64,000 nt of DNA from Macrostomum lignano (Eukaryota): positions 1-64,000 of the forward strand of contig NIVC01000187.1 of the NCBI GenBank assembly GCA_002269645.1, in the 5' to 3' direction. Shown in pieces: positions 1 to 11,415 of this stretch. Both the position numbers and the translations under genes were made by a program. Position 1 is the stretch's first letter, and every line of letters begins with the position of its first letter. Under the pieces are notes generated by a model. That model saw only the letters and a list, made by a program, of their open reading frames with translations, was not told where the DNA came from and searched no databases.

Positions 1-819
1 ATAGAGCACAGCAATTGTCTTTATTTTTAACATTTATGCAAGCTTTTTTACCGGCTAGCTTATGCGGGAGCTCTATATAAGAGGAGGCTTTAAGTGGGTC
101 ATATTTCATGACCATGACAGTCGCTCTTTGAATCCCTCCCACGACCCATCCGGAACCTCTGGATGTAAACGCTTCAATTTTCTTAGTGACATCTTGAAGG
201 AAAGGATCCAGTGTGTCAGTAGGGGTGAATGGCTTCGCCTTTGTTGTCATGTAATACTCGAGATGCTCAGTGGGTTTCGCAGGCATATAAAACGCAATCT
301 TGAATGATATCTGTAGTTTAAATGTCTTGCGTGTTTTGAGTGTGTGATCAACAACTGATTGGATGCTATCTTTATAGTCGTAGATGTTTGCGGTGGTACC
401 GTTGGTGCCGTTAATTGGGATTGTGTACTCTATGTAATGTTCTGTAAACTTCCTCTGTGCAAAATTAATCTCTTCAATGGCAAGCTCCGACTCTTTTAAA
501 TGGATTAATTGCTCTAATTTCTCTTGTTCCTGCTTATTTTGTGGGTACTTTGCTTTTTCACCAGTGAGAGTTTCGTATTTGTTAACTAAGTTGCGACTCC
601 TCTCTTGGTGTTCCTTTGCAGAATTTTTTATAGGCGCATACTGGTTGGATTCTAATTGATTGATGATTTCCAACTGTTTTCATAGCTTCCCAGGTGACCA
701 GGGTCTGTGTTAAACGTTTGTTTACATGCTTCTCTTAGTGAATTACTTTTGTCTTGAAATGAGACGCCTTTTGAAAAATATTTGTTGACTAAATCTTTTG
801 CTGGATTAGCTTTTGGCAT
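1..819 (-). CDS. Protein-primed family B DNA polymerase (pPolB), N-terminal region; 5' end frameshifted; runs off window
   Basis: Manual translation: a frame open from 679 to 1 reads KQLEIINQ...FKLQISFKIAFY...KIEAFTSRGSGWVVGGIQRATVMVMKYDPLKASSYIELPHKLAGKKACINVKNKDNCCAL. The GSGW...KYxPLxxSSYIxLP...KKAxINVKNxD block is typical of Maverick pPolB N-termini. The ATG at 819 (MPKANPAKDLVNKYF) is in another frame, with a shift near the T-run at 677-680. Confidence 0.85.
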
Positions 820-849
820 TTTTTTCTCTAAAATAAAAAAAACATTTTG

Positions 850-863
850 AGGGTGACCACCCT
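850..863. promoter_or_regulatory. Palindromic motif AGGGT-N4-ACCCT about 30 bp upstream of the pPolB ATG (second copy at 5155-5168)
   Basis: AGGGTGACCACCCT at 850-863 and AGGGTGAGGACCCT at 5155-5168, lying 31 and 28 bp upstream of minus-strand ATGs. Confidence 0.4.
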
Positions 864-944
864 GATAGAAAAGTTGAACTGTTTCTACATCCTATCAGTA
901 GTATTAGGTTTATGAAGCTGGATAAAGTGGGGTTTTAAACCTCA

Positions 945-1403
945 TCACATGCGCATTATTGTAAACCCAGCATTGTGCAGTGTCATGATGGCTTTGACAA
1001 TGTCAGACTTGCTTACAGAATTTTCATGCTCAAAATCATCACGATCGGGGCAGCCCTCAGGGCAGCCCTCTCCTGCCTTAATTGTTATACCTTTGTCTCT
1101 TGCAATCTTTTGCAATTCTAGCTGGTGGGCTCTATCATTCCCAGCTTTAACGGCAGTTGCTACACCTCCAGCTACACCACCTGCGGCACTCACAGCGCCT
1201 GCAATGATTGGAATAAGAGCTGCTAATGGTAGGATTCCTCCTGACTTTTCATCTGTGATGCTGTGTCTTTGCTCATTACACTGAAGTATTTGCTGCGTGG
1301 GATCGATTTTTACTTTGATACCTTTAATTGATATAAGACCTGGTTTCTTTGATTCAATGATTTTATTGAGTTTATTGATGGTTCTGGTTTCAATCTTTGT
1401 CAT
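945..1403 (-). CDS. Maverick/adintovirus small structural protein with adenovirus pX-like hydrophobic Gly/Ala segment
   Basis: Intact 152-aa ORF with A-rich ATG context. SGGILPLAALIPIIAGAVSAAGGVAGGVATAV resembles adenovirus pX (RGGILPLLIPLIAAAIGAVPGIASVA). Confidence 0.65.
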   Translation of the reverse strand: MTKIETRTINKLNKIIESKKPGLISIKGIKVKIDPTQQILQCNEQRHSITDEKSGGILPLAALIPIIAGAVSAAGGVAGGVATAVKAGNDRAHQLELQKIARDKGITIKAGEGCPEGCPDRDDFEHENSVSKSDIVKAIMTLHNAGFTIMRM

Positions 1404-1419
1404 TTTTTATTTTAATATT

Positions 1420-2415
1420 TTAATTAATTTCCGTGTCAGCTGGTATCACTAGGAGTTCAGCTCTAGTGAATGACCGCGTGGGGGATTTAGGGTTAAAGGC
1501 CTGAGATAAAAAGTAATAGTCACCGGAGTCGGAGGTAAAATGTCTGTCTATTTTATGTACATCAAGGCTAAAGTATGGATCTGTAGCTCTTCTTTTGGTG
1601 TCTTTCTCTAGCTCTCCAGGTAGATATAAAAAGCGTAGAAACTCAGAGTTTGTCAGTATGTATGGTGATTCAACTCCTGGAAGCTTAGGGTAGTTTGAGG
1701 TGTCTGTTCTATGAGATGACTTAAGTTTGACAGTGTCTTGTTTAATTGCATGGGACGGTTTCAATCCAGTCATGCGCGTGACTTCATTGTTCAGTTGCTC
1801 TATAACAGTGGGGAGCCGGTCTGTCCACTTGGTATAGTATTGGCCACCTTTTAGTTTCAGCTCCTCTGCTGTCTGCTTAGTGAATAGCCTCTTGGCTAGA
1901 GTTAGATTGAATCTTTCCACAAAAGCCTGGTCTCTGTGGAGCTCAGTTCTTCCATAGCGAATTTTTGTGTCATACTTACGTAGAAGTGATATCACTGCAC
2001 CCATGAATTCTTTACCCGGGTCCGTCATAAAGATTTCAGGGTAACTAAGGGGTGAGTTTTTATAAATATCTTGGAGGGCGGCTGCAACTGCTTCTGACTT
2101 CTTCGTCTTGAGTGGGCGAGCTTCCTTATATCTGGAAGCAATGTCAATAATTGTAAGAGCATACTTGTAACCTGAGTCATTGGGGAGAAACAATAAGTCT
2201 GCTTGGTGCGCTTCATTAGGTTTATAGATGCTAAAGTGAGGTCTCGTAAATTGAACAGGTGGGAAATAGACTTGAAAGACAGCCTGCTTAGAGAGCCATT
2301 TTTCTACTGTAGCTTTTGGTTCCTTACTTAGTTCTGCGAGTTTGGTGACTGCATTTTTTCCTACAAAGAATCCTTTGTCGCTGTAGTAGAGTTTTTTAAG
2401 TTTCTGATCTGTCAT
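1420..2415 (-). CDS. Maverick c-integrase (retroviral-like DDE integrase, rve domain)
   Basis: Intact 331-aa ORF. Catalytic motifs HQADL (D), MTDPGKEF (D) and VERFNLTL (E); N-terminal LKKLYY motif typical of Polinton integrases. Confidence 0.95.
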   Translation of the reverse strand: MTDQKLKKLYYSDKGFFVGKNAVTKLAELSKEPKATVEKWLSKQAVFQVYFPPVQFTRPHFSIYKPNEAHQADLLFLPNDSGYKYALTIIDIASRYKEARPLKTKKSEAVAAALQDIYKNSPLSYPEIFMTDPGKEFMGAVISLLRKYDTKIRYGRTELHRDQAFVERFNLTLAKRLFTKQTAEELKLKGGQYYTKWTDRLPTVIEQLNNEVTRMTGLKPSHAIKQDTVKLKSSHRTDTSNYPKLPGVESPYILTNSEFLRFLYLPGELEKDTKRRATDPYFSLDVHKIDRHFTSDSGDYYFLSQAFNPKSPTRSFTRAELLVIPADTEIN

Positions 2416-2445
2416 TTATTTAAAAAGAAAATTTTAAATAAAATA

Positions 2446-2946
2446 ATGCAGCGCTCTGGTGGTAAAATAGATTCACATGGACTGATAGAAAAGCTTCATC
2501 ATCCAAACAAAGGCTGGACACTTCCCGGGTACAAATATTGTGGGCCTTTGAATCCACTTGAAATACAGTTAGATAAAAACAATAATCCACATCCTGGGCA
2601 TGAGCCTGTGAACGAGCTAGACTCTGTCTGCATGTGGCATGACATCAAGTATAGAGATTTTCCTGAGGAGAAGAATCGCTGGGACAAAGAAATGCTCAGG
2701 AGACTCGACAATATGGGGATTTTAAGCGGATTTCGTGAGTCGATTGCTAGGAAATTAGTCAAGGCGGTTATTTTTGGTAAGAAAAAGCTGGGGTTGGGGG
2801 TGGGCGCTGAGGGTGGGTGTTTGGGAAGAGAGGGCTGGTGCACGAGGAGAGAGGGCGGAGGCTCAGGAGCGGGGTTTGTTTTGTGCGCTCCTAACAAACA
2901 AATGGGAAGACTGCTGAAAGAGCTGGGGGTAGAGATGGGCGCTTGA
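2446..2946 (+). CDS. Parvovirus VP1u-type phospholipase A2 (stand-alone)
   Basis: LPGYKYCGPLN (Ca-binding loop), EPVNELD, catalytic CMWHDIKY and a downstream D (RWDKEML). Divergent from the integrase across a 30-bp AT-rich spacer. Confidence 0.9.
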   Translation: MQRSGGKIDSHGLIEKLHHPNKGWTLPGYKYCGPLNPLEIQLDKNNNPHPGHEPVNELDSVCMWHDIKYRDFPEEKNRWDKEMLRRLDNMGILSGFRESIARKLVKAVIFGKKKLGLGVGAEGGCLGREGWCTRREGGGSGAGFVLCAPNKQMGRLLKELGVEMGA

Positions 2947-3570
2947 ATCGGGAAGGGCATGAGCAAGTGTGGATTTGAGTAAGTACAGTTTTTTATTCCC
3001 TAAAGAGTTGCGCACAAGAGAGATTCTCATTCTTCAGAGAGCTAAGAGCAGAAAATGAAAAAAAAGTCAACCGCTTCACCGCCATTGGCATGCATGGACT
3101 GCTTGGGATTCCTTGATTGATATTGATTATTGGCCAAATTGCGAGGCCAGTTGGCCCGCCGAGTTGGCCTCGGCCCGCCGATTTGGCCTCGGAATGTGGC
3201 CCGCCTTGTTGGTCTATACGGTATGAAGATATGGGGGTGGGGTAGAGAGGGGCGCTTGAGTCGGGAAGGGTTTAACTATTATTCTCAACCCTGGCCAAAC
3301 GCGACAGCTGCATTTGAAATGTTGAGAAGCAGAAGGGGGTGGGGTAACTGCTATTGCTGAGGGGGGGGGGCGTAGCCCTCTAATCGATTTTGCGAATGTA
3401 CAAGTTCCACGTGTGCATTCCTTTCCGCTTTGACAACCGGAGGGAAGGAAGCGGGTGGAGGGAATTGATCGCTCGGAAGCTAGTTAAAGCAAGCAAGAAA
3501 ATTCAGCTCATTTTGCTCGCACACGTTCTTCGTCGCGCAATACTGCACCGTTGTGGCTGCTGATTTCATT

Positions 3571-3958
3571 ATGTTGTAAGTTTATTCATTTTTTACTTAC
3601 TGAAATTCTATACTGTGTTAAGAATTGAAAAATCTCTTATTTTGATTAAATCTTTGTTTTTAGTTCACAAAAAATTACGTTCTACTCGACCGACCTAGAA
3701 AATCTCCATGGTCGACTTGTTGAAGGATTAGATGCCAACGAACCGGCATCAGAGAGAATTCAAGAAGTTCTCCATCATTTCTTCAATGAAAAAGTTGAGA
3801 ACCAGCGAATTTGTTCAAGAGCGGCCATGGAGACCCAGGATAACAACTACGCCATGAGAACCGAAATGGTGTTTGACGAACTTCGCCGATCATTTGTTGC
3901 TGATGAAGATTCACTTCTTAGTTATCAACAAATTTTTTCCAGGATTTTATCAATGTAA
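3571..3958 (+). CDS. Putative two-exon 99-aa protein of unknown function (exons 3571-3575, 3664-3958)
   Basis: ATG TT|GTAAGT donor and TTTTTTAG acceptor at 3663 join in frame to a 98-codon open frame (MFSQKITFYSTDLENLHGRLVEGLDANEPASERIQEVLHHFFNEKVENQ...). Confidence 0.45.
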
Positions 3959-4378
3959 GCTACTGATAGTAATCTTCTAAACACTTTCCTGGATCTCCAG
4001 GATTTTTTTTTCCAGGATTTTTTTTAAACTCGTGCCAATTCCTGACAATACAGGAATTCCTGACAATACAGGAAAGTCTTTTACTGGATTTTTTTCCAGG
4101 ATTTTATCAATGTAAGCTACTCATAGTAGTCTTCTAAACACTTTCCTGTATCTCCAGGATTTTTTTTTAAACTCGTGCCAATTCCTGACAATACAGGAAT
4201 TCCTGACAATACAGGAATTCCTGACAATACAGGAAAGTCTTTTACTGGATTTTTTCCAGGATTTTATCAATGTAAGCTACTCATAGTAGTCTTCTAAACA
4301 TTTTCCTGGATCTCCAGGATTTTTTTAAACTCGTGCCAATTCCTGACAATACAGGAATTCCTGACAATACAGGAAAGT
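3925..4378. repeat. About 3 copies of a ~150-bp unit containing 18-bp hairpin subrepeats TTCCTGACAATACAGGAA and the palindrome TCCTGGATCTCCAGGA
   Basis: Directly visible tandem duplication; each unit begins with ttccaggattttatcaatgtaagctact. Confidence 0.9.
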
Positions 4379-4523
4379 GCTGTTCACAAAATGACTGGGA
4401 GGAAAATCAATATTATTCTGGATCCGAAGAATATCGATTTTGGATTGTGTGAGGATCTACAATATCTTGTTCTTTCTCTACCTTATTCATTTCCAGCCTT
4501 GCAACTAAGCTTGCGCGTCGCGG

Positions 4524-4665
4524 ACCAGCATTAGCTGGGGTAATTGGGGGTGTGTGGCGACTCCCCCAGTCCTTGGACTGAACAGCCGTACGCAGCCTTC
4601 AGATCTGCTCTTTCCTCCTTTCCTTTCCTTTGTTTTATGTAAATATACTTGTGAATAAATGAACT
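4524..4665 (+). mobile_element. 3' fragment of the SINE family seen at 46372-46628
   Basis: ccagcattagctggggtaattgggggtgtgtggcgactcccccagtccttg matches the reverse complement of 46434-46485 (ccagcaatagctggggtaattgaggctgtgtgtgtcgaccccccagtccttg). The right boundary is approximate. Confidence 0.6.
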
Positions 4666-4691
4666 CAGTATGTTTTTTAGTAAGCTTTTGT

Positions 4692-4880
4692 GTTTGCTTT
4701 TCGATTTCTTCTGTTGCTGGAGGACAGATGGTGGTAGAGAAACCAAATCCAGTGAAAAGAGTTGTATTGAGTAATAAGGAGATTCACGAGATTGTGCTAC
4801 AGTTTGAGACTGAAGATGGGATGGGTGTTGATTTCAACGGTGAAGAGTTTGTATTGACGTTAATCATTGAGAGAATGTAA
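4692..4880 (+). pseudogene. C-terminal fragment of a Maverick minor capsid (penton) protein
   Basis: FSISSVAGGQMVVEKPNPVKRVVLSNKEIHEIVLQFETEDGMGVDFNGEEFVLTLIIERM* resembles the penton C-terminal pattern VxxG..IxExP...I.xI.I.xxDxDG..VDFxGE.xxxxLxI. No N-terminus is present. Confidence 0.55.
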
Positions 4881-4887
4881 GAAAAAA

Positions 4888-5127
4888 TTACAATTGCCTA
4901 ATGATTTCTGCAAAGTTATAGTAGCTGTCGTAATCTTTTACGTAGGTTACTCCGTACTTATGAAACCAATGTCTTTGGAGAGCTTGATTAATATTAGGGA
5001 CATTGATATCAACGCTGGGCCAATATTTTCTCATGTACTCGCTGCATTCAAGTTTGCATCGGTACTTGGATTTGTAATTAGGCTCGTGCGTTTTGTAATA
5101 AGAACCTGGAGAGACAACTGGAAACAT
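4888..5127 (-). CDS. Small 79-aa ORF of unknown function in the Maverick
   Basis: True ATG in aaaATG context, convergent with the penton fragment, and it shares an upstream palindromic motif with pPolB. Confidence 0.4.
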   Translation of the reverse strand: MFPVVSPGSYYKTHEPNYKSKYRCKLECSEYMRKYWPSVDINVPNINQALQRHWFHKYGVTYVKDYDSYYNFAEIIRQL

Positions 5128-5324
5128 TTTTAGAGAAAATTTAATTTTTTTTAAAGGGTGAGGACCCTGCGCTGATGATTTAAAGTCTTAGGGATGTGGT
5201 AGCACGTTGCGGATTGAATGTGGGGAGAAGAATGCAGATTATTTTCTGATTGTTTCGAAGATGCTATGGGTGGATGTCGGTGTCAATGAGCATAACAGGT
5301 GTTAGTGGACATCTGTTATGCTCT

Positions 5325-5812
5325 GATTCTGTCAGGGATAATATGGATGGATTTAATACGATTATCTTCGAAGTTTTCGGAGCAAGTGCGACCCCTCCAC
5401 TTTTTCATGATTCTGTCGGGGATAATATGGATGGATTTAATGGGATTATGGAGGACGTTTTGTGAGCGAGTGCGACCCCCCTTTTTTTCTGATTCTGTCA
5501 GGGATAATATGGATGGATTTAATGGGATTATGGAAGAGGTGAAAAATTTTGTCCCAGAAGCCCCCTCATGCCTTCTACTTGCGGCTGAGCTGTCGGCTGT
5601 ACATCTGGCCATTGGGCAGGTGTAATCAAATATTGTTATTATAAGTTTCAGAAAAACCATCAGATACAAGTATCAAAACAATTGTCAGATGAAAGTGTCA
5701 GACAATTCCGTCAGATAAAAGTGTCAGACAATTCCGTCAGATGAAAGTGTCAGACAATTCCGTCAGATAAAAGTGTCAGACAATTCCGTCAGATGAAAGT
5801 GTCAGACAATTC
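5325..5812. repeat. Subterminal repeats: 3 copies of an ~85-bp unit, then about 5 copies of a 26-bp unit GTCAGATGAAAGTGTCAGACAATTCC
   Basis: Directly visible. Confidence 0.85.
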
Positions 5813-6381
5813 CAGAAGGACAGAGGACAAAGCAGAATTTCCAAAGTGTCAATCCTGGGACTCTTGAATTCCCAAGAAAGCAATGTGTGTTTTATCAGAG
5901 ATGTACTCACAATTTTATCAATCTATTTTTTTCATTTTGCAGTGCACTTTTACAGGACGGGTTTTTTTCACGACGTAACCGCATTTGTCTATGGCGTAAC
6001 CACATTCAGCGCTGCAAAAAAGAACAAAATCTTTAATACATATATATCCGTTATTCCGAAAGCAAAACTAAATTTTAAGCATTGCTGTTGTTCTCCAATA
6101 ATGTTTTTTTAAAACGTCTTCAAATTCTCATTTTCCTTGCTAGGCGTGCCCAAAATGCTCGGCTGAAGCGAGGATTGGCCATAGACTATGACGCATTTTT
6201 GCTATACAGTCTCAGATTGTTAGAAAAAAAGTCTAAGTGAGACTTAGCTTAGTCAAGGAGTTCTATAATTCTATAGCTTCTAAGGAGTTCTATAGCTTAG
6301 TGAAAAATAACCGATATTTTTTATACCAACGAGTCATAAATCATAAACTCCACTGAACGGACTTCTCGGCCAAATTAAATA

Positions 6382-7014
6382 ATGCCACTTAACGTCTTCA
6401 GTTTTTCGGCTACTGCCATCATATTGCTTGCGTGCATAGGTAAGCTAATGAAGCATTTTTCTATTGGGCACTTGTACTTTGTATTTATACACTCAGTGCA
6501 ATTTGCTATTTATAAATTTGTCTGTTACAGTTGTGACAAACAGTATAAAGTGCTATCAATACGGTCCTGGTGACAAGACGGACACCTCTACAACTGTTGA
6601 CTGCAATGGGGGATTAAAAAATAGCCAACAAACACTAAATTCTATGTTTCCAAATATGAACTTCAATACTAACCAAAATACCTTTAAGCACTGTGCGCGA
6701 ATGCACGGCTATGCGGATGGCAAATATTTCGTGAGTCAACTGCGCGACACTGAGTCTGAACAGATTTCCTAACCTAAGCACTTTAGTACTGAAGAAGACT
6801 CCAGCTAACAGTCATTGAACTAATTTTTCAGGTTTACGGAACTTGTGGACATTGCGGATCGATTCCTGGTGGCATCAAGACTGCCTCGGTCACGTGCAGC
6901 TCCTGCACTTCTGACGAGTGCAACTCTGCCAGCAGAAAAGGCAGCGTCTCGCCTGCAGCCACCATCAGTTTGGCTGCCTGTCTACTCTGGCTGCTCAGCT
7001 TCATTGCTTTCTAA
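6382..7014 (+). CDS. Ly6/uPAR (three-finger, quiver-like) GPI-anchored protein, paralog 1; exons 6382-6439, 6531-6730, 6832-7014; 146 aa
   Basis: Canonical GT-AG introns that join in frame; signal peptide, 8 Cys ending in CTSDECN, hydrophobic C-terminal GPI-type tail. Confidence 0.85.
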
Positions 7015-7849
7015 ATTTTTTGCCGGATTGAAAATTCTTCTTCTTTTCAATGCAGAATCCACCAAAAAAAACAAACTACAAGCCTATAAATGGTAGCATC
7101 GGCTCAATAAAAAGCACTGGAAAACTTTTGTTTGTTTAGGAATGCAGATCAACAAAGCTTATTAAAACTCCACTCAAAAATAAACGCTTCAGTTTTACGA
7201 ATTTATCGGGTAACTTTTTAACTGAACTCAAAAAAAAGAACTTTTCGTCTTATTTCTTTCATTTATAAGTTGTAGACCAATCTATTAAAAAAGCTACTGT
7301 TACTGGAGTATACTACTGAATTATTAGAGCTAGGAAAGTCATGTTGAGAGCATGTTGGAAGATATGGCTCAATTAGATGTGAAGGAACTCCAGGAACGAA
7401 TCGAATGAACCTGTTTCATTGATTACCGCTTGAGCTGGTCTATTCCGCTATCTACTTAGTGTCCGTGGGATTAATATCATCGAGGATCAAACGTTTCAGA
7501 AAAACCTTATCTTCAATAGAATGCCTTGAGTCTGAGTATTGAATTTGATATGGATCTGGCTCGCTTGGGTTTTTATTGAAGTTTTCTTGTCCTTTTCCTG
7601 TTAATATAGTGTAATAGTTACTGTAACAATAACATTAACTAATTACTATAATAACGATCAATGTTAAATAAAGTTTTTTTGTGCAGTGTGATTTGGCCAA
7701 GGACATTGGAAGCGTGCAGCTATTTTGCTTATTTTTTGGACCCCAAAAAATCAATCCAAAATGATACAAGGATCCCCCTAAAAACAATTCTTTGTTAAGA
7801 TAGATGCGTTGTTGAGGTGTATTGACAATTACTGATCTTCTTCGATCTT

Positions 7850-9476
7850 AGCAGACCCCATCTCCCCTTTGTCATCTGCTGTTGATGGTAGCTTAGCAGA
7901 CCCCATCTCCCCTCTGTCATCTGCTGTTGATGGTAGCTTAGCAGACCCCATCTCCCCTCTGTCATCTGCTGTTGATGGTAGCTTAGCAGACCCCCATCTC
8001 CCCTCTGTCATTTGCTGCTGATGGTAGCTTAGCAGACCCCATCTCCCCTTTGTCATCTGCTGTTGATGGTAGCTTAGCAGACCCCATCTCCCCTCTGTCA
8101 TCTGCTGTTGATGGTAGCTTAGCAGACCCCATCTCCCCTCTGTCATCTGCTGTTGATGGTAGCTTAGCAGACCCCATCTCCCCTCTGTCATCTGCTGTTG
8201 ATGGTAGCTTAGCAGACCCCATCTCCCCTCTGTCATCTGCTGTTGATGGTAGCTTAGCAGACCCCATCTCCCCTCTGTCATCTGCTGCTGATGGTAGCTT
8301 AGCAGACCCCATCTCCCCTCTGTCATCTGCTGTTGATGGTAGCTTAGCAGACCCCATCTCCCCTCTGTCATCTGCTGTTGATGGTAGCTTAGCAGACCCC
8401 ATCTCCCCTCTGTCATCTGCTGCTGATGGTAGCTTAGCAGACCCCATCTCCCCTCTGTCATCTGCTGTTGATGGTAGCTTAGCAGACCCCATCTCCCCTT
8501 TGTCATCTGCTGTTGATGGTAGCTTAGCAGACCCCATCTCCCCTCTGTCATCTGCTGTTGATGGTAGCTTAGCAGACCCCATCTCCCCTCTGTCATCTGC
8601 TGTTGATGGTAGCTTAGCAGACCCCATCTCCCCTCTGTCATCTGCTGTTGATGGTAGCTTAGCAGACCCCATCTCCCCTCTGTCATCTGCTGTTGATGGT
8701 AGCTTAGCAGACCCCATCTCCCCTCTGTCATCTGCTGCTGATGGTAGCTTAGCAGACCCCATCTCCCCTCTGTCATCTGCTGTTGATGGTAGCTTAGCAG
8801 ACCCCATCTCCCCTCTGTCATCTGCTGTTGATGGTAGCTTAGCAGACCCCATCTCCCCTCTGTCATCTGCTGTTGATGGTAGCTTAGCAGACCCCATCTC
8901 CCCTCTGTCATCTGCTGTTGATGGTAGCTTAGCAGACCCCATCTCCCCTCTGTCATCTGCTGTTGATGGTAGCTTAGCAGACCCCATCTCCCCTCTGTCA
9001 TCTGCTGTTGATGGTAGCTTAGCAGACCCCATCTCCCCTCTGTCATCTGCTGTTGATGGTAGCTTAGCAGACCCCATCTCCCCTCTGTCATCTGCTGTTG
9101 ATGGTAGCTTAGCAGACCCCCATCTCCCCTCTGTCATTTGCTGCTGATGGTAGCTTAGCAGACCCCATCTCCCCTCTGTCATCTGCTGTTGATGGTAGCT
9201 TAGCAGACCCCATCTCCCCTCTGTCATCTGCTGTTGATGGTAGCTTAGCAGACCCCATCTCCCCTCTGTCATCTGCTGTTGATGGTAGCTTAGCAGACCC
9301 CATCTCCCCTCTGTCATCTGCTGTTGATGGTAGCTTAGCAGACCCCATCTCCCCTTTGTCATCTGCTGCTGATGGTAGCTTAGCAGACCCCATCTCCCCT
9401 CTGTCAATTTCTGCTGATGGTAGCTTAGCAGACCCCATCTCCCCTTTGTCATCTGCTGTTGATGGTAGCTTAGCAT
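7850..9476. repeat. 45-bp minisatellite (AGCTTAGCAGACCCCATCTCCCCTCTGTCATCTGCTGTTGATGGT), about 36 copies
   Basis: Directly visible; the ORF translations have a 15-aa period. Confidence 0.97.
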
Positions 9477-9477
9477 G

Positions 9478-9901
9478 GTAGCTTAGGGTTTTGGCCTGAG
9501 GGCGACTCGAATATCCCGAGAAGGACGTTTCTGAGCCTGCAAGAGGAGCACGGAACTGCGACACGAGGTGCCCTCCCATTCGTCCCTGTGAATGGGAATC
9601 AGCCCAGTCATCGATCTGACGATTGATGACCGTAGAAGGGATCAGGGACCAGGGGTTCAGGACCAAGGAAAAAGACAACCTTTTCAGCGAGGGTGTCTGC
9701 CAGCTCTTTTTCAGGAAACCCTGCGTGCCCTGGGATCCACTTCAGCCCAACAGTATTGCTACTGGCCAGGAGGTTGAGCTGCCGGACGCAGTTGGCGACT
9801 GTCCGCCGGGAGTTCGTTGTGGTGTGGCAAAGGGCCTGTTGTAAAGCCGCTTGGCTGTCAGAGTGAATGACGATAGTCTTTCCTCTGTGTACCCTTGGCA
9901 T
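9478..9901 (-). mobile_element. Degenerate non-LTR retrotransposon (I-group-like) fragment: RNase H domain
   Basis: IHSDSQAALQ...VANCVRQLNLL...VGLKWIPGHAG..ELADTLA...GPEP are RNase H motifs of LINE ORF2; frameshifted. Confidence 0.85.
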
Positions 9902-10786: not shown

Positions 10787-11415
10787 ATGCCACTTAACGT
10801 CTTCAGACTTGGCGCTATTGGCATCCTATTTTTTGCGTGTATTGGTAAGCTAATTTAATAGCATTCTGACAATTATGAAAAAATGTGCATTGTTACATTT
10901 TATTGCATTTACATGTACATGTGTACACTTACTGGTGTAATTTGCTATTTATTAATTTGTCTTTTACAGCCGTGACCAACAGTATAAAGTGCTATGAATA
11001 CGACGCTGAGAAGGATGGGACCCCTGAAGCTTTTGACTGCAATGAAGCACTAAAAAAAATAAAAGGTGTAGCAAAGCTTGAGAAGCATGAAGAAATAAAA
11101 CACTGTAAGCGAATGCACGGCTATAAAGATGGCAAATATTTCGTGAGTCAGCTACATGCTTCTGAGTCTGACAGTTTTCCTGAACACTTAGTACAGTACT
11201 GTAGACTGTTATTTACCTCATTTTTACAGGCTGGTGGATTTTGTGGAGATTGTAGTTTTAACGTACCTCTTCCTGCCAAGTCTTTCTCGATCACGTGCAG
11301 CGCGTGCACTTCTGAAAAGTGCAACTCGGCCAGCAGAAAAGGCAGCGTCTCGCCTGCAGCCGCCACCAGTTTAGCTGCCTGCCTACTCTGGCTGCTCAAC
11401 TGCTCTGCTTTCTGA
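10787..11415 (+). CDS. Ly6/uPAR-like GPI-anchored protein, paralog 2; exons 10787-10844, 10970-11142, 11230-11415; 138 aa
   Basis: Same exon structure, intron phases and Cys spacing as paralog 1 (CTSEKCN), with signal peptide and GPI tail. Confidence 0.85.

Follow-up and report, generated by a model that had tools for sequence, protein, structure and literature searches.

The right end of a Maverick/Polinton element

The DNA analysed here (the window) is a stretch of 64,000 nucleotides from Macrostomum lignano (assembly GCA_002269645.1, contig NIVC01000187.1, or C187, positions 1 to 64,000 of the forward strand) whose first few kilobases belong to a Maverick/Polinton element. A first-pass annotation made from the letters alone had assigned positions 1..5850 to the end of such an element with intact integrase, phospholipase A2 (PLA2) and pX-like genes. 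It recognised the kind of element correctly but placed the right boundary too far out, at 5850 rather than 5579. The terminus at 5579 reads ...CTACT and is followed by TGCGGC, and since likeness to other copies ends at this point, 5586-5850 (which contains a 26-bp tandem repeat) is host DNA. The features of the element, including its terminal inverted repeat (TIR) and target site duplication (TSD), are as follows (E, expect value; ORF, open reading frame).

1-819, minus strand: 5′ part of the gene for a protein-primed DNA polymerase of type B (pPolB), spread over two frames (break near 680) and running off the contig start
945-1403, minus strand: stand-alone gene for a pX-like core protein, 152 residues (Adeno_PX E 4.8e-7, 30 bits, cut-off 25)
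1420-2415, minus strand: retroviral-like integrase, 331 residues (rve E 5.7e-10; D73, D132, E167; prototype foamy virus integrase E 0.0015)
2446-2946, plus strand: parvovirus-type PLA2, 166 residues (PF08398, Phospholip_A2_4, E 3.5e-13; calcium-loop-like and HD motifs)
2947-4709, no strand: variable, subfamily-specific accessory region, with 157-bp tandem repeats at 3932-4375
3571-3958, plus strand: probable small spliced ORF of ~99 codons, with a predicted GT-AG intron (3576-3663) directly after the ATG
4659-4880, plus strand: duplicate, in the right TIR, of the penton gene 3′ end (residues 225-287, the last 63 codons, 89% identical)
4710-5579, no strand: right TIR, 870 bp, ending CTACT, with 84-bp repeats at 5322-5534
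5580-5585, plus strand: TSD TGCGGC, 6 bp, matched at the left end on contig C1203

The pX-like, integrase and PLA2 ORFs each score above the Pfam cut-off, and the gene order that had been read from the window (pPolB, pX-like, integrase, divergent PLA2) stands. Because C187 starts with the window's first base, the left part of the element is readable only on C1203, which matches window 1-7993, host flank included, at 99.89% identity (3 mismatches, 6 gap positions). There the element occupies 236154-267587 with TGCGGC at either side, so that the second TIR and the 6-bp TSD that the annotation had proposed to look for are both present, the TSD being perfect. Compared with the right TIR, the left one is 98.4% identical in an outer block of 184 bp and 93.8% identical in an inner block of 795 bp. 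Using another natural copy as coordinate reference, the gene content on C1203 was annotated, in order, as penton, major capsid protein (MCP), two unknown ORFs, ATPase, two further unknown ORFs, protease, pPolB, pX, integrase and PLA2; the capsid, ATPase and protease genes had been predicted to lie leftward. The A32-like ATPase (Pox_A32, E 7.5e-7) and the adenain-like protease (Peptidase_C5, E 3.6e-4, 20.7 bits against a cut-off of 21.3) are full length. The MCP matches PF21738 slightly below cut-off (E 3e-5), and a 77% identical relative exceeds it.

On C1203 the MCP gene is split by a Gypsy-like element (reverse transcriptase, protease and integrase matches; long terminal repeats, LTRs, of 421 bp with 1 mismatch) and the left TIR by a BEL/Pao element (Peptidase_A17; LTRs of ~315 bp, 98.4% identical), and the window copy is therefore broken. 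An exact 110-bp duplication of TIR sequence (C1203:236228-236337 and 243220-243329) flanks the BEL/Pao insertion and far exceeds the usual LTR target duplication. With these two nested elements the locus measures 31.4 kb, as against 14.3-16.8 kb in 14 ordinary copies; Mavericks/Polintons are about 15-20 kb long. The frameshift reported in pPolB, present in the window but absent from C1203, accounts for one of the six gap positions; C1203 in turn has an integrase break that the window lacks. As each break is found on just one of two near-identical contigs both may be assembly indels, and from this comparison the polymerase break near 680 is likely to be one.

All the Maverick/Polinton hallmarks examined (TIRs, TSD, pPolB, DDE integrase, double jelly-roll MCP and penton, ATPase and protease, length) were found. 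An rve integrase match is by itself not family-specific, and the locus might in principle have been a chance assembly of unrelated mobile pieces, such as a Ginger-like integrase beside a parvoviral PLA2. However, many TSD-flanked copies share this gene order inside matched TIRs and also carry MCP, penton, ATPase and protease genes, and these colinear full-length copies refute that reading, whose probability we regard as negligible. The annotation had named as evidence against itself a left part devoid of further Maverick genes together with ORFs grouping with unrelated elements (for instance Ginger integrases); the left part on C1203 does hold the other Maverick genes.

Copy number, age and selection

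Exact matching across the genome found 482 terminal 22-mers, 236 MCP markers and 238 pX markers (reversed controls gave 0), from which we estimate about 240 family copies, duplicate contigs included. A perfect 6-bp TSD was present in 26 of 32 two-ended records (two of these records being duplicate contigs of an already counted locus). Compared with 35-37 other copies, the window copy has no private site in pX (459 nt), two in the integrase gene (996 nt) and one in the 5′ part of the polymerase gene (639 nt); PLA2 has five. So few private sites indicate a young copy, in line with the fairly recent insertion that had been proposed; the accompanying claim of intactness was overstated for a copy split by two LTR retrotransposons.

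Selection was assessed from the ratio of non-synonymous to synonymous substitution (dN/dS) in loci L001-L060 and the window, by pooling pairs against one reference copy. Pooled values were 0.06-0.24 in ten coding stretches (18-31 matches each), with ATPase at 0.06, MCP 0.11, protease 0.14, integrase 0.14, penton 0.16, PLA2 0.20 and pX 0.24, although the pairs are non-independent, which weakens the argument made from them below. At the level of sequence these ratios show that the coding genes are under purifying selection. Among matches covering at least 85% of a gene within one fetched stretch, frames were open in 19/31 for MCP, 32/48 for integrase, 33/46 for pX, 29/33 for PLA2, 21/34 for penton, 21/34 for ATPase and 7/18 for protease.

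The two arms of the element have had separate histories. Over 16 contigs gene distances correlated within the left arm (penton-MCP 0.63) but not across arms (penton-integrase 0.02, penton-PLA2 −0.08, MCP-integrase 0.10), and C1203 differs from C1076 by 1.4% in the integrase gene but by 20.5% in the ATPase gene. This points to recombination between variants, giving mosaic gene histories.

Penton and terminal inverted repeats

The penton piece near the right end had been taken for a truncated gene; it is instead the 3′ end of the penton gene duplicated inside the right TIR, and not a decayed gene. The full-length product was identified by its predicted fold, which matches the pentons of mavirus (E 3.7e-9; Z 12.6, root mean square deviation 6.6, 232 residues aligned), Sputnik and adenovirus. 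The model was built from 14 sequences (pLDDT of 75, compared with 36 from the single sequence only). A BFVD search supports the penton fold and gives no placement as Alpha or Beta adintovirus; a penton relative led to unnamed viral clusters only.

The penton-bearing extended TIR occurs on C187/C1203, C1076, C875 and C3721, each with its own TSD, and as four separate insertion loci share it, the extension predates the insertions. The first aligned TIR-TIR block ranges from 245 to 1124 bp across 14 ordinary copies, six of which have ends just 87-92% alike. A short event in which one arm was copied onto the other may have extended the TIR over the penton 3′ end in the C187/C1203 subfamily before insertion.

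Palindromic half-elements

At least three TSD-flanked loci of the family, all outside the window, are palindromes in which one arm is present twice in inverted orientation, each with a perfect TSD; they were drawn from the first 100 of the 482 terminal matches and the first 100 places per marker, so that more may exist. At C975:122373-133902 (TSD CCTATA) the right arm (TIR-PLA2-integrase-pX-polymerase) is duplicated around a 492-bp spacer. At C276:289398-300645 (TSD TAGATG) the left arm (TIR-penton-MCP) is duplicated around a 1.75-kb spacer bearing the ATPase gene, with a 10-nt overlap at the junction; this locus and its junction recur on C1652 (94%) and C3945 (70/70 nt). C633:134497-147606 (TSD CCACTG) is a second left-arm palindrome, whose junction shows a templated insert of 235 bp and an overlap of 28 nt. 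The integrase gene is missing from both C276 and C633; the polymerase gene is missing from C276 and wholly or largely missing from C633. Their TSDs are nevertheless perfect. Both left-arm palindromes re-enter just upstream of the ATPase gene, beside a 21-bp repeat tract.

The arm interiors of each palindrome are 99.8-100% alike, compared with at most 97.7% (C975), 97.0% (C276) and 98.8% (C633) to the other copies fetched. This suggests that the copying took place inside a single molecule. The two ends of C975, and likewise those of C633, have unlike outer TIR parts despite their near-identical interiors, a pattern in favour of fold-back synthesis, perhaps after insertion, with the crossover falling in the TIR.

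Two further candidates, C957 and C1098, were rejected as palindromes and are really nested or inverted multi-element loci. C1098:29333-34390 has two element termini at the 21-bp repeat tract between the ATPase gene and a small upstream ORF, with the capsid arm inverted, and is likely to be a nested insertion followed by TIR-TIR inversion. TIR-only or internally deleted derivatives were seen at C124:22982-23697, C289:58541-59180 and C544:473028-476600, with perfect TSDs, and at C32:1150965-1151833 and C33:768924-777592, where five of six TSD bases agree.

Mode of spread and origin of the palindromes

Taking these results together, we consider it very probable that positions 1-5579 of the window are the right-hand end of a Maverick/Polinton copy, flanked by a TSD, belonging to a set of ~240 in the genome and now broken by two nested LTR retrotransposons, and that the family has spread, likely by integrase insertion and polymerase self-copying, with a probable virion stage. 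From established Maverick biology the integrase would make the 6-bp TSD on insertion and pPolB would copy the linear genome from its ends; the ATPase, MCP, penton and protease would build the particle, with pX as its core protein and PLA2 helping membrane entry. Self-copying, packaging and the roles of pX and PLA2 are assigned from homology and purifying selection, by the argument used in parts of PMC8097293. Several points weigh against this reading: the dN/dS values are far above the 0.001 given for cyprinid Mavericks in that part of PMC8097293, many copies have frame breaks in which assembly error is indistinguishable from decay, and no virion, transcript or free DNA has been observed. No RNA dataset is among the listed holders of the stretch, which says nothing for or against expression. 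The lack of an observed particle or free genome would also fit a family of self-synthesising transposons whose spread never leaves the genome, its capsid genes being passengers or serving an intracellular particle. In keeping with this, the listed datasets holding the stretch all carry one organism label, and a scan of IMG/VR viral contigs with the MCP gave 18 pattern matches and no confirmed relative. We regard spread confined to the genome as possible but rather doubtful, because MCP, penton, ATPase, protease, pX and PLA2 all have dN/dS of 0.24 or less, the MCP and pX markers occur nearly 1:1, and other public assemblies hold MCP relatives at 70-77% identity.

For the palindromes we favour a scheme in which one arm has repeatedly been copied onto the other, with long events replacing the whole arm and giving the palindromes; fold-back synthesis on a single molecule, crossing over within the TIR, is the most likely route. 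It is conceivable, though unlikely, that the palindromes are artefacts of long-read assembly at a high-copy element with long TIRs. Counting in that direction, and against our scheme, the C975 junction is present once in the assembly and is unbridged among short-read contigs listed from six runs (contigs drop rare variants), and C1652 has the spacer of this locus in the opposite orientation to C276 and C3945, perhaps through ambiguity in the assembly; reads may moreover be shared by contigs of one assembly. An artefact sits poorly, however, with the recurrence of the C276 structure and junction on three contigs, with spacers (0.5, 1.75 and 3.4 kb) that consist of element sequence and not adapter, with the templated insert and overlaps at the C633 and C276 junctions, and with flanks that are not inverted, TSDs that are perfect and a paralogous empty site for C975. 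The palindromes might instead predate insertion: a replicating element would have produced them as snap-back defective genomes, and a helper copy would have integrated them in trans. This would suit the perfect TSDs of the integrase-less C276 and C633, the inheritance of the TIR extension across separate insertions, the shared re-entry point of the two left-arm cases, and the existence of deleted and TIR-only copies with TSDs. The differing outer TIRs and near-identical interiors of C975 and C633, on the other hand, are predicted directly by post-insertion repair and not by simple snap-back, and no palindrome was found at two different insertion sites, so that we give an origin before insertion a minority share of the probability. 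A tentative extension of the arm-copying scheme is that the copying took place during extrachromosomal replication, both extending TIRs over genes and shedding snap-back half-genomes (capsid-only or polymerase-integrase-only) that a helper integrated in trans; the loci might then preserve fossil traces of defective genomes and of an animal Maverick replicating in the manner of adenoviruses.

Comparison with known elements

In snap-back defective viral genomes and in chromosomal fold-back inversions, one arm is present twice in inverted orientation on either side of a unique spacer, and the junctions show short overlaps. The palindromes described here share this form but differ in being bounded by Maverick termini and an integrase-type TSD.

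The family resembles the animal Polintons/Mavericks described in parts of PMC8097293 in its structure and gene set (TIRs, 6-bp TSD, pPolB, integrase, ATPase, protease, MCP and minor capsid protein), in purifying selection on the core genes and in that most copies are damaged. It differs in its terminus (AGTAGA, compared with (AGT)2 or (AG)3), in its ~240 young copies compared with a vertebrate median of 8, and in its copy-variable TIRs of ~0.3-1.1 kb and palindromic half-elements, neither of which is mentioned in those portions of the paper.

With adintoviruses, as described in PMC8502044, it shares an adenain-like protease, integrase, homologues of hexon and penton, a PLA2 of the parvovirus type and a domain resembling pX. 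That account has PLA2 fused to pX (PLA2X) as the mark of Alpha virion modules, and a divergent polymerase and GasderminX as Beta characters. In M. lignano, by contrast, PLA2 and pX have an ORF each, one per strand and on either side of the integrase gene (supplementary maps of PMC8502044 may show such cases); the PLA2 ORF has no Adeno_PX match and the single longer pX relative found has no PLA2 match. The PLA2 aligns only weakly with that of adeno-associated virus VP1 (E 0.02-0.05), and a PLA2 is noted in a figure legend of PMC3671162. The polymerase in other copies has a match to Endonuclease_7 slightly below cut-off and a weak match to PF03175 (32 bits on one copy, cut-off 25.8), which lies in the N-terminal part, with none on the C-terminal 487 residues. 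A weak pfam03175 match is as expected for Beta (PMC8502044) and leans against Alpha, and we tentatively assign the polymerase to the divergent (Beta-like) class. Such a polymerase beside these PLA2 and pX genes would be a combination other than the one described there. Because PLA2 and pX are separate and PF03175 is weak or missing, the element fits neither the Alpha nor the Beta description cleanly. No Pfam match to an OTU domain, which adintoviruses of both classes have at the polymerase N terminus, was found on the 878-residue N-terminal polymerase ORF, a sequence search of the PDB with the C-terminal part gave no useful match, and the scanned ORFs had no Pfam match to the Beta accessory genes GasderminX or cupiennin. 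The polymerase has 2,327 relatives at E ≤ 1e-30, the best 44-48% identical; six of 20 protein clusters are named, three being arthropod proteins and the others hypothetical.

Nematode Polintons, according to parts of PMC10748475, have pPolB1 or pPolB2 with an HNH or VSR endonuclease and exchange genes between co-resident Polintons. An endonuclease domain inside pPolB and gene exchange are thus common to both, but here the Endonuclease_7 match is below cut-off and the exchange is between alleles of one family and involves many genes. Portions of PMC11414722 describe Polinton-linked inversions and TIR-only remnants, and mosaic and tandem elements appear in part of 10.64898/2026.10.13.758929. In the published literature covered (titles, abstracts and parts of texts, without supplements) we found no palindromic or fold-back Maverick and no account of this family.

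Taken alone, the element end in the window is an ordinary, broken one, and the family is the more useful object. We regard it as a large, young family in M. lignano, a new member of a known element type, with the palindromic derivatives as an added finding. With ~240 young, recombining copies and constrained capsid genes, the host is suited to a search for native Maverick particles and free genomes, so far unobserved according to the literature covered. If the palindromes hold up they would be a record of how Maverick DNA is copied or repaired, and could show trans-mobilisation of integrase-less elements.

Other features of the family and the window

The donor and acceptor of the predicted intron at 3576-3663 are identical on C1203, C1076, C875 and C3721; the small ORF itself has no Pfam match. 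An acceptor-like tract also lies at about 820-845, immediately upstream of the ATG of the polymerase gene. The accessory ORFs that separate PLA2 from the right TIR vary by subfamily (L026:6596-7366, L038:6598-7272, L047:2051-2926, L051:2932-3327, L040:6706-7173), and six that were scanned gave no Pfam match above cut-off. Group I introns were looked for with Rfam in 14 and 15 loci; no intron was matched, and one tRNA only.

A second, distant Maverick-like family (L044:8494-10000, L065, L066; C904:21366-37520) has a different gene order and is about 26-53% identical to the first in polymerase, 36% in integrase and 34% in PLA2. Its pX-like gene is likewise separate from PLA2, and it has two pX-like stretches.

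Beyond the element, the window has two similar clusters of cysteine-rich host ORFs with hydrophobic ends (6452-7014 and 10879-11415), of which two ORFs scanned had no Pfam match above cut-off. Between the clusters lies a 45-bp tandem array of 36 copies (7847-9475), followed by an RNase H fragment (9608-9901, E 6.6e-8) that is probably a retroelement remnant.

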